NCBI GenBank assembly: GCA_048938855.1
Contig: JBHLLT010000012.1
Span: 1-64,000 of the forward strand
DNA from: Promethearchaeota archaeon
Lineage (GTDB): Archaea > Asgardarchaeota > Lokiarchaeia > Sigyniarchaeales > SOKP01
Length of the DNA: 64,000 bases
Reading direction: 5' to 3'
The notes below the pieces were generated by a model. The model was not told where the DNA came from. It was given only the letters and a program-made list of their open reading frames with translations, and made no database searches. How positions within the stretch are numbered: position 1 is the first letter of the stretch; every line of letters begins with the position of its first letter. Of the stretch, positions 2,051 to 8,218 are shown in pieces. A program made the position numbers and the translations under genes.

Positions 2051-2386
2051 TTATTTTTCACTCAGTCCTGTAAAAATTTTTTCCATTTTCTTCCGATACA
2101 CTTCAAAAGCTTCCCTTCCTTGTTTACTTAACTTTAAAATTGTTTGAGGGCGTTTACCTTTAAATTTTTTTTCCACTTCCACATATCCAACGGACTCTAA
2201 CTTGTTTAGATGAGAAGATAAATTTCCATCAGTTAATCCTGTTTGATTTCTTAAGAAAACAAAATCAGCGCTCTCAACGACATATAAATATGACATTATC
2301 ATCAACCTAGCTGGCTCATGAATAACTTTGTCAATATCTGTAAGAGGTTGTAAAATATCATCTGATTCTGCTCTCTTTTTTGCCGT
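2051..2386 (-). CDS. Winged-helix transcriptional regulator (ArsR/MarR-like, HTH_34 type), probable ACG start
   Basis: DIDKVIHEPARLMIMSYL...LTDGNLSSHLNKLE..GYV..EK.F.GKRPQT. The family N-terminal motif lies upstream of the ORF-track TTG (2305); SD AGGTGA sits 6 nt before ACG at 2386. Confidence 0.85.
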   Translation of the reverse strand, partial: TAKKRAESDDILQPLTDIDKVIHEPARLMIMSYLYVVESADFVFLRNQTGLTDGNLSSHLNKLESVGYVEVEKKFKGKRPQTILKLSKQGREAFEVYRKKMEKIFTGLSEK

Positions 2387-2396
2387 GATTACTCAC

Positions 2397-3032
2397 CTAC
2401 TTCGATAGGGGATATTTTTTTAAGAAGCGAATAAAATAATAAAGACCTATCACTACTATTAACCCTCCAATTGAACCAAAAATAAGAAGAGCATTCATTG
2501 GAGATCCCACAATAGGGTTAATTAAAACTGTTAAAAATAATCCTATTCCCGCAAGAAAAGCATAATAATATAATCTTGTAAAGTCAAGAAAAAAAGCTAC
2601 CACACAAAAGGGCAAAGTGAAAAATCCTAGTCCTAAAAATAGTGATATAAAAAGGGGCTCAAGCGGAATACTACTGATAAACCCTGTAAAGGGTAAAATA
2701 AATAATATTAAATTTAAGATGAAGAAGGCAATTAAAAAAAGTTTCAGTTTTAGATGTTTTGACTTGCGTTTTGGTCCAAATTTTACAAATCCTATCCTTG
2801 GGATTGTTATAAACTTCTTTCCTAAGTAGAATATTAAGAACGCAATCGTATACCAAATAACAATAGGAATGAAAGTAATCCAAATATCTGGTAAATTGAA
2901 GACTGAGCCTAATGATGTACTTGCTCCCATACCTAAAATTATCATTCCCATAAATAAATCCCATAAACCATCATCGAATATAGATCTATATGCTTTTTTC
3001 TCAAGTGACTTTAAATCCAATTCTTCTGACAT
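2397..3032 (-). CDS. Membrane protein, paralog 3 of a tandem triplet
   Basis: DLKSLEKKAYRSIFDDGLWDL N-terminus, ITIPRIGFVK, C-terminal RFLKKYP; about 6 TM segments. Confidence 0.85.
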   Translation of the reverse strand: MSEELDLKSLEKKAYRSIFDDGLWDLFMGMIILGMGASTSLGSVFNLPDIWITFIPIVIWYTIAFLIFYLGKKFITIPRIGFVKFGPKRKSKHLKLKLFLIAFFILNLILFILPFTGFISSIPLEPLFISLFLGLGFFTLPFCVVAFFLDFTRLYYYAFLAGIGLFLTVLINPIVGSPMNALLIFGSIGGLIVVIGLYYFIRFLKKYPLSK

Positions 3033-3034
3033 TT

Positions 3035-3673
3035 CTAAACCATCTCTATCTTTGGTTTTGGATATTTTTTAAGAAATCGAATAAAAATTATCGATCCCAT
3101 TAAAAGAATGATACCTCCCATAACCCCATATGACAAAAGCCATCTAATTCTATAATCTATGAAATCATATAATAACTCATTAATGAATATAGCTAGCCAT
3201 ATAAGCATTCCAATGAAATATAATCTAGGAAATTTCATTAAATAAGCTATGATGGCAAAAAAAGGTATGAAAAACAAACCAATAATTAAAATAAAAGTAA
3301 TACCTTCTACTTGTATTCCTGGACCATTGCCAATAATTAATAAAATAAAAATAGTTAATTGGATTACAAATTGAATTAAAACTACAATAAATAACTTTTT
3401 TCTCATTGATTTGATGGAAGGACCAGGTTTAACAATTCCAATCCTGGGTTGAATGACATATTTGAGGGTGATAAATATAAATATAGTTGCGATAATGATA
3501 AGAATTAGTGGCCATGTGAAATAATTATAAGGTGGAGGTAGACTTTCACGGAAGATTGGTCCAAAGGCCATTCCTGTAACAATAAAACCTAACATCAAAT
3601 CAAAAAGACCATGTTGATGAGCTGACTTTAGGATTTTTTTCTCAATCTCTTTCAGATCAATGTTGTTTGCCAT
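3035..3673 (-). CDS. Membrane protein, paralog 2 of a tandem triplet
   Basis: DLKEIEKK...GLFDL, IQPRIGIVK, RFLKKYP. Confidence 0.85.
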   Translation of the reverse strand: MANNIDLKEIEKKILKSAHQHGLFDLMLGFIVTGMAFGPIFRESLPPPYNYFTWPLILIIIATIFIFITLKYVIQPRIGIVKPGPSIKSMRKKLFIVVLIQFVIQLTIFILLIIGNGPGIQVEGITFILIIGLFFIPFFAIIAYLMKFPRLYFIGMLIWLAIFINELLYDFIDYRIRWLLSYGVMGGIILLMGSIIFIRFLKKYPKPKIEMV

Positions 3674-3676
3674 ATT

Positions 3677-4324
3677 TTAGCTACTCTCCTCTTTAGATCT
3701 TGGATATTTTCGAATGAATTTAATTAAGAATGTCATTCCTATAAAAATAATAACAGAACTTATAATACCAAATGCGATTAATGCATCAAAAGGCTCTGGA
3801 ATAAAAATTGAAAATAAATCTGATAAAAAGAAGCTTATTCCTACTAAAATAGAAATAAAATATAATCGGGGATGTTGTAGAAAATATGCTGCAAAACATA
3901 ATGGAACTGTTATAAATAATAATCCAGTTATTAATCCTTGTATATATACGGGAAAAATTGACCATAAGGCGGGATTTATTAATCGCATAATATAGACAAT
4001 CAATAGAATAATCGCATTTATAGACAAAACAATCACAGTCTTCAATTTTCGAGATTTTTGTTTAAAGCCAAATTTTACTTTTCCCAAACGAGGTTGTGTA
4101 ATAAATTTCTTTCCGAGTAGAAACAAGATTAATCCTATTATCATAAGCATTATTGGTAATAAACTATCAAACGGCTCAGGTAGATAATCAACAAGAGTTA
4201 TTCCTATACCAATACTTAAAACTAATATCCCAAAATAAATATCTAAAAGTCCATCTTCAAGGGTAGATCTCCACGTTTTCTTCTCAATTTCCTTTAAATC
4301 AAAATTTTTAGCTATTTTTTTCAC
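3677..4324 (-). CDS. Membrane protein, paralog 1 of a tandem triplet (start GTG 4324 or ATA 4315)
   Basis: DLKEIEKK...EDGLLDI, ITQPRLGKVK, KFIRKYP. Confidence 0.85.
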   Translation of the reverse strand: MKKIAKNFDLKEIEKKTWRSTLEDGLLDIYFGILVLSIGIGITLVDYLPEPFDSLLPIMLMIIGLILFLLGKKFITQPRLGKVKFGFKQKSRKLKTVIVLSINAIILLIVYIMRLINPALWSIFPVYIQGLITGLLFITVPLCFAAYFLQHPRLYFISILVGISFFLSDLFSIFIPEPFDALIAFGIISSVIIFIGMTFLIKFIRKYPRSKEESS

Positions 4325-4338
4325 CTTAGTATTAAAAA

Positions 4339-4440
4339 TTAAAAGATCTTACTTAACGACATCATAAGACCCACAATAAGAGTAAAAACACATACAAGGG
4401 TCAAAATGATCCATAAAAATAATATTCTTTTTCTTTTCAT
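4339..4440 (-). CDS. 33-aa single-TM / signal-peptide-like small protein (not in ORF track)
   Basis: GGAGG SD 8 nt before ATG; MKRKRILFLWIILTLVCVFTLIVGLMMSLSKIF*; fills the gap between the permease and paralog 1. Confidence 0.65.
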   Translation of the reverse strand: MKRKRILFLWIILTLVCVFTLIVGLMMSLSKIF

Positions 4441-4522
4441 TTATTTTTCCTCCTTTATTTTTTTTTATTATTACTAAATTGATAAATTGAAAAAAAAGAA
4501 AAGTGAATGATTTTTTGTATAA

Positions 4523-6199
4523 CTACTCAAGTTTATTCAATTTTCGCATACCAAAATAAAGCAGTGGAAGGCTAATTCCAATATTATAAAGAAATACAGG
4601 TACCTGCATTAAAATTCTCGTCATTTCAACAGTCTCAGGATGAATTACAAGCAATAACATAATAGGTAAAAACATCATTGGTTGGAGTAAAAGCATTGAT
4701 ATCATTGCATTTGATCTCATGTTAGAGTCTTTCTCTCCAAAGGCAGGGGATGTACATTGGAGCCCCATAGCTTGACACATTGATATCTCCGCAAAAAGTA
4801 GAAATTCAACGAAAAAGATAATAGTGTTTAGAATATCAATGCTTGTGAATATTACAAACAAAGTAGTTATAAATATTGATATTAAAATATTTATAATCAG
4901 CATTGTAAGTAAATATGAATACACTAAGGATTTTATTCCTCTTGGAGATCGTTTGTAAATCCAAATAACGTCCTTTGAATCAACAAAAGCAAGATGCCCT
5001 ATTATTATACTACCTATACCACCACCAATAGCAATTAAAATGGTTGAGGAAAATACAGTCCCGAATGCATCTTCACTCATTCTTGAGATAAACCAACTCA
5101 TAAAACCTAAAAGGCCTACAATATATGCAATTCTCGCGATATTTGCTTTTTTTCTGAAGAATCTTTTCAATTGCACGATAATTAAACCTCCCCAACTCCT
5201 TCCAGAAACATTCCTTATTAACCTATAGAACATGTTTTCATGTTTAACAATTGTAATATTGCTCTTCTCAATTCCCGTTTCTAAGGTATAGAATGATTCC
5301 GCTTTTTTGTAAGCAATATATAAGACTGATGTGGGAATAGCAACGACTAACAGAAGATTTATCCATATATTTAAGATAAATGAATTAAGTAATGTTGGGT
5401 CAATAATATACAAAATTATGTTTGAAAACCAAAGTGACGGGTAAAAGGCTAACCAATTTTTTAATTCTGGATGTGTTAGCAGATTGTTAAGAAAAAAGAT
5501 TATGGCATACATTATTGCAACCATAATTATTGTAAAAATCCAGATTAATGCTTTTCCTAAATCTCGTGCTTTTTCATTCTTTGAAATTTTATGCTCTAGC
5601 CAACTTGCTACAATTGAGCCTACTAAGTTAGCAAAATAAACAAGCCCAAAGACCGAACTGTATATAATAAGATACTGAGGAAACGTAAAATTTATGATTG
5701 GATTTATCATACCAATTACGATTGGGGATATTAATAAGACTATCATAGTGTAAATGGGAGCCTTGCCCAAAAATTCTCCCAAGAAGATATCATTTGGTCT
5801 AACTGGCGTCGCTAATAATGATTCTTTTACTCCTGTCTCACCTTCTCTATACACATTATTTAAAGGATAAATTAAAAGCATTAGAAATAACATCATCATT
5901 ATAGATTCAATAATAACTATAACAGCTGGTTTAAAAACACTTGAAAACTGATCAGCTAACGTAGGCATAAAGAGATCAAATAATATAGGTGCAAAAATAA
6001 ACGCCCAAAGAAATAACAACGAATATAGAGTTATAAAGAACCATTTACGATAGTTTCGAAAACTACTTGTTCTTAATAAAATTTCATTTTTGGCAATTAC
6101 TCTCCATAGCGTTTTTTTTGGAACCACTACTTCAGCTGGTTCTTTACGTATTTTATTATCCTTTGAATCTAATATTTTTTCAGTTGTAAGAACTGTCAT
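4523..6199 (-). CDS. ABC exporter permease (large multi-TM, ABC-2-like)
   Basis: LLATPVRPNDIFLGEFLGK ABC-2-type motif, 12 or more TM segments, adjacent to the ABC ATPase. Confidence 0.8.
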   Translation of the reverse strand: MTVLTTEKILDSKDNKIRKEPAEVVVPKKTLWRVIAKNEILLRTSSFRNYRKWFFITLYSLLFLWAFIFAPILFDLFMPTLADQFSSVFKPAVIVIIESIMMMLFLMLLIYPLNNVYREGETGVKESLLATPVRPNDIFLGEFLGKAPIYTMIVLLISPIVIGMINPIINFTFPQYLIIYSSVFGLVYFANLVGSIVASWLEHKISKNEKARDLGKALIWIFTIIMVAIMYAIIFFLNNLLTHPELKNWLAFYPSLWFSNIILYIIDPTLLNSFILNIWINLLLVVAIPTSVLYIAYKKAESFYTLETGIEKSNITIVKHENMFYRLIRNVSGRSWGGLIIVQLKRFFRKKANIARIAYIVGLLGFMSWFISRMSEDAFGTVFSSTILIAIGGGIGSIIIGHLAFVDSKDVIWIYKRSPRGIKSLVYSYLLTMLIINILISIFITTLFVIFTSIDILNTIIFFVEFLLFAEISMCQAMGLQCTSPAFGEKDSNMRSNAMISMLLLQPMMFLPIMLLLVIHPETVEMTRILMQVPVFLYNIGISLPLLYFGMRKLNKLE

Positions 6200-6211
6200 C
6201 TTAAAATTACC

Positions 6212-7048
6212 TCATCTAAGTCTCTTATTTTTTCTTTTTTTTCTATGTTTTTTATTATCTTTTTTGAAATTTTCAGGATTTTGATCTCTCCAAGCTAACA
6301 AATCCTCAATATGGGAAGCTCCAGTTATTTTTAAATATGCCCCTTCTAAGTTTTTAGCACCTGTTGATTCAATGATCTCTTTTGGAGTACCTTCAATTTT
6401 TAACTGCCCATCAACTATTATACCAATTATATCACATAGCTCTTCAGCTGTATCGAGAAGATGAGTACATATAAATACTGTTTTGTCTGCTTTTTCTGCA
6501 AGTTCCGAAATAAGGTTCTTAACAATTCTTGCTGCTGCGGGATCGAGATTTGATGTGGGCTCATCTAGAAAAATTATTTCGGGGTCTTGAATTAGAGCTG
6601 CACATAAACAGACTTTTTGTTTCATTCCTCTAGAATATCCTTCTAATAAATCATTTTCACGACCTTCTAAATCAAATAATTCTAATAACTCATTAATGCG
6701 ATTGGATATTACTTCTCTTGGCATGTAATACAATTCACCAATAAATTCTAAGAACTCTCTCGCAGATAATTTCGAATATAATCCAGGAGATTCTGGTAAA
6801 AATCCACAAATCATTTTTACTTTCTGACTTTCTGATACAATATCAAAACCTCCTACAGTTGCCTTTCCAGAAGTCTTAGAAATAATCGCATTGAGAATTC
6901 TAACTGTTGTAGTTTTCCCTGCTCCATTTGGACCTAATAATCCATATGTTTTTCCATAGGGTATCTTTAAATTAATGTTGTTGATTGCTCGGATATTACC
7001 AAAATTCTTAGTAAGGTCATGAGTCATAATTGCATGAGTTTCTACTAT
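6212..7048 (-). CDS. ABC transporter ATP-binding protein (probable ATA start 7048; first ATG 7027)
   Basis: Walker A GPNGAGKTT, signature YSRGMKQK, Walker B IIFLDEPT, H-loop CTH. Confidence 0.95.
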   Translation of the reverse strand: MVETHAIMTHDLTKNFGNIRAINNINLKIPYGKTYGLLGPNGAGKTTTVRILNAIISKTSGKATVGGFDIVSESQKVKMICGFLPESPGLYSKLSAREFLEFIGELYYMPREVISNRINELLELFDLEGRENDLLEGYSRGMKQKVCLCAALIQDPEIIFLDEPTSNLDPAAARIVKNLISELAEKADKTVFICTHLLDTAEELCDIIGIIVDGQLKIEGTPKEIIESTGAKNLEGAYLKITGASHIEDLLAWRDQNPENFKKDNKKHRKKRKNKRLR

Positions 7049-7096
7049 TTTTTTTCACCTCTTGATTATTATTTTTACTTTTTTTTAATTTTGAAT

Positions 7097-8218
7097 TTAA
7101 ATTAGGTTAACATCAGATTCGTATCTTGTTCTGGTTCCTAACCATGAATAGAGTATGAGAATAGCACTGAAACTTATAATAATCACAATTAAGTATAATA
7201 TAATATTATAAGCAGCTATTCCTAACCCGACAAATGTCAATTCTAAGATTACAGGAATAAATATTAATATAATCCCCATGGATTTAAACCCAAATAATCC
7301 TAGTAATGAATTTTTAGGAGTCTTTTTCCTAACAATTACAACCCATTCTACAGTTTGCTTCTTAAAGAATTGCCATAATCCATAAAACAATACTCCCAAT
7401 CCAGCAATAAAAATAGTCCAATAAATAATGCTATAACTTAAAGCCAATGTACTATTTCCTGCCATTATTATTAATGGTCCTGAAAATGAAATGAAATTTA
7501 ATATTCCATGAATTATAATTGGATATAGCACATTCCGAGTAAGGATATAAATTAATCCTAAAGAAAATCCAATTAAAAATACAGCAGTTATGTGTATAAC
7601 GCCTCCAGAAAGATTGCCGTTTAACAAATCAGCTGGTAGATGTGCCATAGCAAACAGAAGGCTGGATGATGTGATTGCAGTTAGTGGTTTCATTCCTCTA
7701 TTTTCCAATAATGGAATTAATAACCTACGATAAACTAATTCCTCATATATAGGCGCTCCGACTGTAAGTGGAAGATAATAAATTAAAATATTTAAAGGAT
7801 TAGCTAAATGTCCGGGAGTTAATAGTATATCTGAATAACCCGACTGAGGATTTAGATTAAAAATTCCAACTATATATACTAAAAGTAAATTAACAATAAC
7901 AATAGCAGAAAAAGTGCCACAAATGAGTACTATTGTCCTTATAGCATTTAAAATAGTGAGCTTATGATATTGCACTTTTTTTGCGTTGAATAAAGGGATG
8001 AAAACAAAATAGACTATGAAAATCCCTATAATTTGAGAAATTAGCAGTACTAAAAGATTTGTAATGATAAGATCTAAAGGAAAAGCAGGACCAATAATAA
8101 CGATAATCAATGTGGTTATTAAGGAAATTAGCTCTAATAGAATTCCACTTATTCCAATTACCATTAATGGAGTAAAATAATTTAAAAATTTTCCGTTCCT
8201 CTCATTGATTATAACCAT
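7097..8218 (-). CDS. CPBP/Abi (CAAX type II) intramembrane glutamic endopeptidase
   Basis: Intact motifs EELVYR (EExxxR), FAMAH (FxxxH) and HGILN (HxxxN). Confidence 0.9.
   Translation of the reverse strand: MVIINERNGKFLNYFTPLMVIGISGILLELISLITTLIIVIIGPAFPLDLIITNLLVLLISQIIGIFIVYFVFIPLFNAKKVQYHKLTILNAIRTIVLICGTFSAIVIVNLLLVYIVGIFNLNPQSGYSDILLTPGHLANPLNILIYYLPLTVGAPIYEELVYRRLLIPLLENRGMKPLTAITSSSLLFAMAHLPADLLNGNLSGGVIHITAVFLIGFSLGLIYILTRNVLYPIIIHGILNFISFSGPLIIMAGNSTLALSYSIIYWTIFIAGLGVLFYGLWQFFKKQTVEWVVIVRKKTPKNSLLGLFGFKSMGIILIFIPVILELTFVGLGIAAYNIILYLIVIIISFSAILILYSWLGTRTRYESDVNLI

Follow-up and report, generated by a model that had tools for sequence, protein, structure and literature searches.

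The subject of this analysis is a tight cluster of eight genes, all intact, on the minus strand (positions 8218-2051) of a 64,000-nucleotide stretch of DNA from an uncultured Promethearchaeota (Lokiarchaeia) archaeon (G000:C54:1-64000, where G000 is the source genome; hereafter the window, with a G+C content of 30%). Three of these genes appear to be translated from the near-cognate codons ATA, ATA and ACG, each placed behind a strong Shine-Dalgarno (SD) sequence. The cluster begins with an Rce1-like (CPBP) membrane protease with an ATG start (7097-8218; Pfam Rce1-like, E=1.9e-19), which is the upstream neighbour of the first gene of interest, an ABC transporter ATPase of 278 codons when read from ATA 7048 (6212-7048; Pfam ABC_tran, E=7.6e-27). 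There follow an ABC-2 type permease of 558 amino acids, whose ATG start is conserved in all orthologs (4523-6199; Pfam ABC2_membrane_3), a small open reading frame of 33 codons encoding a hydrophobic peptide (MKRKRILFLW...) behind the strong SD AAAGGAGG (4340-4440), and three paralogous membrane proteins of about 212 amino acids: P1, read from ATA 4315 (3677-4315), and P2 and P3, both with an ATG start (3035-3673 and 2397-3032). The last gene encodes an HTH_34 winged-helix regulator of 111 codons when read from ACG 2386 (2051-2386; Pfam HTH_34, E=2.9e-30). The order of this transporter operon is kept across the genus, in 13-17 orthologous operons.

Proposed start codons of the three operon genes

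A re-reading of the minus strand confirmed the SD motifs, the spacers and the positions of ATA 7048, ATA 4315 and ACG 2386 that a first-pass annotation of the window had proposed. The 16S rRNA of the source genome ends in ...GGATCACCTCCT and carries the anti-SD, so that the complementary AGGTGA and GAGGTGA motifs can be regarded as true Shine-Dalgarno sequences. In all three genes the distance from the SD to the proposed start is 5-6 nt, the same as for ATG genes, and each of the three codons aligns with the starts of orthologous genes.

The support for a near-cognate start is strongest for P1, which very likely begins at ATA 4315. Here AGGTGA (4326-4321), an SD conserved in 13 congeners, is followed by a 5-nt spacer and ATA (4315-4313), and the N-terminus read from this codon, IAKNFDLKEIEKK, aligns with that of the paralog, MANNIDLKEIEKK, as the first-pass annotation had noted. 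The ATA lines up with the ATG of P2 and P3 and with that of the more distant homologs at the ortholog loci L034 and L038, and the N-terminal DLKEIEKK motif that it restores is conserved in orthologs and paralogs. A GTG at 4324, within the SD, is in frame in the window, and the next canonical start lies 55 codons downstream. Among the close congeners ATA is found at this position in 13 out of 13 (14 genomes with the window), the spacer being 5 nt long in ten of these genomes, where the GTG is in frame, and 6 nt in four. In three of these four (L026, L027 and L030) it is the TGA of the SD that is in frame, in the fourth (L031) the SD offers no canonical codon in frame, and no canonical start is met for about 55 codons in any of them. 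Since the GTG of the SD is out of frame in 4 of the 14 genomes, GTG 4324 cannot be the common start of P1. Moreover, all 14 genomes keep ATA in P1 at a protein identity of 62-91%, whereas ATG is retained in P2 and P3, which argues that at least the weak start of P1 is under selection; this is the one observation that would speak for a weak start selected for low output, in line with the suggestion of the first-pass annotation that such codons might tune stoichiometry.

For the regulator, the evidence for a near-cognate start is good, and we consider it likely that the protein starts at ACG 2386. Its SD, AGGTGA (2398-2393), overlaps the TAG stop of P3 and is separated from ACG (2386-2384) by a 6-nt spacer. 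As had been claimed, the frame is closed by TGA 2395-2393 with no canonical start upstream: between this stop and ACG there are only GTA and ATC, and a canonical start is not reached until TTG 2305, 27 codons downstream of ACG. In the orthologs the ACG position is occupied by ATG in 11 cases (plus one offset by a codon), by TTG in three and by ATC in two, and both ATC orthologs have an in-frame TAA two codons upstream; after the start the orthologs continue with A/T-K-K-K-x-E-S-D/E-D. Residues 2-27, which a start at TTG 2305 would lose and which include the DKVIHEPARL motif, are 78.5% identical across 12 congeners, compared with 84% for the rest of the protein.

For the ABC ATPase the support is moderate, and the protein probably starts at ATA 7048. 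GAGGTGA (7061-7055), whose TGA (7057-7055) is an in-frame stop, is followed by a 6-nt spacer and ATA (7048-7046). According to the first-pass annotation, reading from this codon restores the AIxTxxLTK usual at the start of ABC proteins, and in twelve congeners the aligned codon is ATG (5) or TTG (7), their N-termini continuing M-S-K-A-x-A-I-K-T-Q-N-L-T-K, with the conserved H-A-I retained in the window's protein when it is read from ATA. ATG 7027, the first canonical start after ATA, lies seven codons further on, so a canonical start is not wholly lacking where the protein must begin; none of the twelve congeners has a start codon at that position. The sister genome G007, whose ATPase shares 95% amino acid identity, has the identical SD, spacer and ATA, and a TTG at the 7027 position. 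We also considered an alternative genetic code or readthrough of TGA and rejected it, given that the ATPase frame reaches no upstream start (TAA 10 codons further up) and that the orthologs carry plain starts at the aligned positions.

As for the neighbouring features, the small open reading frame at 4340-4440 is weakly conserved, being present at the same place in few congeners and interrupted by a stop in one of them. P1, P2 and P3 are tandem multi-pass membrane paralogs with 34-40% identity and a shared N-terminal x-D-L-K-x-[IL]-E-K-K motif. No Pfam family was matched by any of the three, and in the ESM Atlas their closest clusters consist of hypothetical proteins, chiefly from Chloroflexota. 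The HTH_34 regulator always follows the P paralogs, whose copy number is four in congener G024 and two in some genomes.

Genome-wide association of near-cognate codons with SD sequences

Counts of the bare motif in the window alone were not significant: GGTGA-N5-7-ATA was matched 11 times where 6.2 were expected, and its ACG counterpart twice where 0.5 were expected, which is not beyond chance. Apart from the three operon sites, no GGTGA-ATA/ACG site of the window begins a long frame directly after an in-frame stop, and it is this placement, together with the alignment with ortholog starts, that lifts them above chance. In the source genome only about 3% of 1435 clear ATG genes have GGTGA 3-10 nt upstream, so that SD-led initiation is the minority mode there.

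The genome-wide tally of codons behind an SD, which the first-pass annotation had named as a check, was restricted to frames of 100 codons or more; within these, the in-frame codons preceding the first canonical start were scored for a 5-mer SD at a normalised spacing of 4-8. An SD was present for 430 of 32108 codons overall (1.3%) and for 67 of 9097 AT-rich control codons (0.74%). Compared with these controls, enrichment was found for ACG (8/130, 6.2%; Fisher p=1e-5), ATT (69/2056, 3.4%; p=1e-17), ATC (11/549, 2.0%; p=4e-3) and ATA (30/1596, 1.9%; p=5e-5), an SD at start spacing being 2.6-8.8 times commoner for these four codons than for the controls. The spacing profiles of ATT and ATA had a sharp peak at 5-6 nt, and the excess above background amounts to about 80 genes under the strict SD definition. 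Together with the alignment of ortholog starts, the tally supports the earlier proposal of SD-led initiation at non-canonical codons.

Of the eight CTG matches in the tally, three were rejected as starts, being copies of one internal tandem repeat: at G000:C34:224141-224243 (+) three identical SD-like plus CTG contexts, 51 nt apart, lie in one long frame and inflate the CTG count. Just past the end of the window, at G000:C54:69038 and 79480 (+), two more frames begin with ATT, 6 nt behind GGTGA and with an in-frame stop two codons earlier; their next canonical starts come 56 and 17 codons later.

Putative near-cognate starts in other genes

Three further genes of the source genome have ACG at the start defined by their orthologs. 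One encodes a Gtr1/RagA-Arf-like GTPase (G000:C74:20621-21553, plus strand; loci L039/L044; orthologs L045-L073 and L104) and reads GGTGA-TTTTTT-ACG-T-K-K-I-C-V-I-G-L-D-N-A-G-K-T; its next canonical start is 48 codons in, and starting there would delete the P-loop. In 29 congeners the GTPase start behind TGGTGA-N6 is ATT in 11, ATA in 10, ATC in one and a canonical codon in about four, most of the genus having no canonical start before the P-loop. The ACG is also found in the sister genome G007 and is thus real DNA in two assemblies. The second gene encodes a TFB (TFIIB-repeat) paralog (G000:C62:80481-81389, minus strand; locus L040/L074) with ACG 8 nt after GGGTGA. At this position 15 orthologs carry ATG (8), TTG (5) or one of GTG, CTG and ATA, in most cases closely preceded by a stop; a protein begun at the next canonical codon would lack its zinc ribbon.

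The third gene encodes a protein of 297 amino acids with no Pfam match (G000:C74:45096-45989, plus strand; locus L041/L114; orthologs L115-L138). Behind a perfect AGGTGAT, its putative start is ACG in six species and ATC in six; where orthologs carry ATG there or close by, the SD is degenerate (AGATGA or AGATGT). This looks like a compensation of the weak codon by the strength of the SD, the pattern expected if weak codons need strong SDs. Two N-terminal types of this protein (NVLEGGV and DARPGGE) are distributed at odds with species relatedness.

The gene for the initiation factor aIF1/SUI1 (G000:C31:6347-6670; locus L139:1420-1743, plus strand) has no ATG, GTG or TTG before its Cys-rich zinc knuckle, and its candidate start is ATT, 9 nt after GGTTGTGA. 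ARAGORN predicted 13-24 tRNAs and a single, intron-bearing tRNA-Met(CAT) in the source genome. The putative near-cognate starts are, on this evidence, a genome- and genus-wide trait and not peculiar to the operon.

Proposed mechanism and alternative explanations

We hold it to be quite likely that the three operon genes are translated from ATA 7048, ATA 4315 and ACG 2386 by way of their SDs, as a local case of a start rule that is relaxed throughout the genus. A 6-7-nt SD (AGGTGA or GAGGTGA) would pair with the 3' end of the 16S rRNA and bring the codon that lies 5-6 nt beyond it into the P site, where the ordinary initiator Met-tRNA would tolerate one mismatch, at the third base for AUA and at the second base for ACG. 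The proteins would begin with Met all the same, probably at lower yield than from AUG. Under the genus rule, ATT, ATA, ATC, ACG and probably CTG would serve as minor starts, almost always behind a strong SD. An SD-led mechanism is suggested by the fixed spacing, by the strong SDs at near-cognate starts as against the variable or weak SDs at ATG orthologs, and by the free interchange of ATG, TTG, ATC, ATA and ACG at homologous start positions. More tentatively, we hypothesise that this genus, and probably a larger clade of Loki-type Asgard archaea, could use a eukaryote-like set of starts (AUU, AUA, AUC, ACG and CUG) chosen by SD pairing and not by scanning, with some weak starts under purifying selection (the ATA of P1 in 14 genomes, and ATT or ATA of the Rag/Arf-like GTPase in 22).

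Several observations weigh against translation from these codons. The enrichment of ATA over all codons is modest (odds 1.4, p=0.04), and in the TFB paralog and 297-amino-acid genes of the source genome the GTG of the SD is in frame, so neither of these ACG cases is clean. For the ATPase, the extension of seven codons is too short to prove that it is coding, and only the window and G007, the two genomes that bear ATA, have a canonical codon seven positions further along (ATG and TTG, respectively), from which it follows that the ATPase start may have moved. For the regulator, an ATC lies one codon upstream of ACG, and the ACG is known from one assembly, as the contig of the sister genome G007 ends inside P1, before the regulator; when metagenomes were scanned for a second, independent assembly of this ACG context, none matched. 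What the data show are the sequence features themselves, the alignment of each codon with ortholog starts, the conservation of the N-terminal extensions and the genome-wide enrichment of SDs; that ribosomes initiate at these codons, insert Met and yield a reduced output is inferred from them.

The simplest alternative is that translation begins at the nearest canonical codons (ATG 7027, GTG 4324, and TTG 2305 or ATG 2302), with ATA and ACG either untranslated or internal. Such in-frame codons do exist, most genes of the genome have no SD, so that an SD-less or leaderless ATG would not be unusual, and the confinement of the downstream ATG or TTG of the ATPase to the two ATA genomes has the look of a replacement start. 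We nevertheless judge this explanation unlikely, since for P1 the GTG falls out of frame in four of 14 genomes, all of which have the ATA, and for the regulator TTG 2305 would discard 27 residues that are 78% conserved and include the IHEPARL motif; two congeners have ATC at this position with a stop two codons upstream. In the ATPase, the strong SD and ATG 7027 are 27 nt apart, a distance too great for the one to serve the other, and the conserved H-A-I residues are retained in the extension. A start of the regulator at ATC 2389 in place of ACG 2386 is quite improbable: it is the first start of NCBI translation table 11 after the in-frame TGA and ATC is the aligned start in two orthologs, yet it lies 3 nt from the SD, outside both the 4-9 nt range of ATG genes and the 5-6 nt peak of ATT and ATA, whereas ACG, at 6 nt, is the codon aligned with the start of every ortholog.

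The same codons could be used by ribosomes that finish the upstream gene and reinitiate, and not by de novo SD-led initiation. The arrangement of the regulator, with its SD overlapping the P3 stop and ACG 11 nt after it, is compatible with this, as is the P1 ATA 24 nt after the stop of the small open reading frame. On the other hand, 46 nt separate the ATPase ATA from the stop before it, non-coding DNA precedes the GTPase and the other ACG, ATT and ATA cases, and the conserved element throughout is an SD at a fixed spacing; as a general explanation we therefore regard reinitiation as rather improbable, and it may contribute at the regulator, where the SD overlaps the upstream stop. It is very unlikely that the odd codons are errors of assembly or consensus, or recent start mutations in a decaying operon. 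In favour of this, the genome is a draft assembly of 93 contigs with an estimated contamination of 7%, and the regulator ACG, which is one transition from ATG, is the codon that lacks confirmation in a second assembly. Against this, the P1 ATA recurs in 13 other species and the ATPase ATA in G007, ACG at other start positions is shared with G007 (GTPase) and with five other species (297-amino-acid gene), none of the eight cluster genes is disrupted and the gene order of the operon is shared across the genus. Editing of ACG to AUG in the mRNA, in the style of plant organelles, is suggested by analogy alone and is extremely improbable, as it could not explain the ATA, ATT and ATC starts. To our knowledge, C-to-U editing of mRNA is not known in archaea; a search of the genome for the DYW deaminase (PF14432) gave no match, with the controls silent too.

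Translation of the operon from ATA 7048, ATA 4315 and ACG 2386 would have consequences for annotation and for the study of initiation. Archaeal initiation is commonly held to accept AUG, GUG and UUG only. Gene callers limited to ATG, GTG and TTG, and even those using table 11, whose starts include ATT, ATC, ATA and CTG, with ACG absent, would assign wrong starts to a few per cent of genes in these much-studied genomes, with N-terminal losses that include the P-loop of the GTPase, the zinc ribbon of TFB and the first helix of the regulator. The first-pass annotation had expected standard callers to truncate all three operon genes; this holds for the ATPase, which would be shortened by 7 residues, and for the regulator, shortened by 27, but P1 would be lengthened by 3 through the in-frame GTG. 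If conserved ATA and ACG starts behind SDs are indeed used in Asgard archaea, the interplay of an aIF1-type proofreading shared with eukaryotes and the positioning by SD becomes testable, as does the use of weak starts to set protein ratios within operons.

Comparison with known systems

A literature search for near-cognate or ACG starts in Asgard or other archaea found no relevant paper in the library covered; in a ribosome-profiling paper on Haloferax, near-cognate codons made up about 30% of the putative alternative sites and were not considered further. The closest parallel is found in Staphylococcus aureus, where infC, ccpN and citZ start at AUA and cvfC1 at AUU behind extended SDs, with an output of about 10-30% of that of AUG (PMC13009471). 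The two systems share AUA or AUU at the proper spacing behind a strong SD, and the conservation of codon and SD between species. In S. aureus, a bacterium with proofreading by IF3, a handful of genes is involved and the measured output shows a tuning role; in the archaeon described here, which has the eukaryote-type factors aIF1, aIF1A and aIF2, about 2% or more of the genes would be involved, ACG included, and the starts are predicted from sequence.

In E. coli, infC and pcnB are known for their AUU starts. The weak start of infC is autoregulated, the gene encoding the very factor that discriminates against such a start. None of the three operon genes, for the ABC ATPase, P1 and the HTH_34 regulator, encodes a factor of this kind; elsewhere in the genome, the aIF1 gene does. 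With reporters for all 64 codons in E. coli, AUA, AUC, AUU and CUG gave 1-2% of the output of AUG and ACG 0.1-1%, and the ACG product was found to be Met-initiated by mass spectrometry (10.1101/063800). In E. coli, ACG therefore ranks with the 0.1-1% codons and does not occur as a natural start, a role that it would have in the present genome.

Among eukaryotic viruses, AAV VP2 and Sendai C' start at ACG. Near-cognate initiation at ACG, CUG and AUU in eukaryotes has been reviewed (PMC5666671). The codons that would be tolerated here form the same set, one mismatch from AUG and with ACG among them, and the fidelity factors eIF1 and aIF1 are homologous; an aIF1 gene with no canonical start is, moreover, reminiscent of the autoregulation of eukaryotic eIF1. 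Eukaryotes rely on scanning and Kozak context, whereas here the codon would be positioned by the SD, and the eukaryotic cases are mostly upstream open reading frames or alternative isoforms, whereas here the near-cognate codon would be the only start of ordinary genes.

In plant organelles, ACG is restored to AUG by C-to-U editing. Non-AUG starts have also been described in chloroplasts (PMC9845219), with which the present genes share ACG at the genomic start position of intact, conserved genes; unlike in plant organelles, the other near-cognate codons found here are not repairable by such editing. The genes described here differ from the documented parallels in their domain (an archaeon with aIF1 and aIF2), in scale, in the use of ACG and in their conservation across species.

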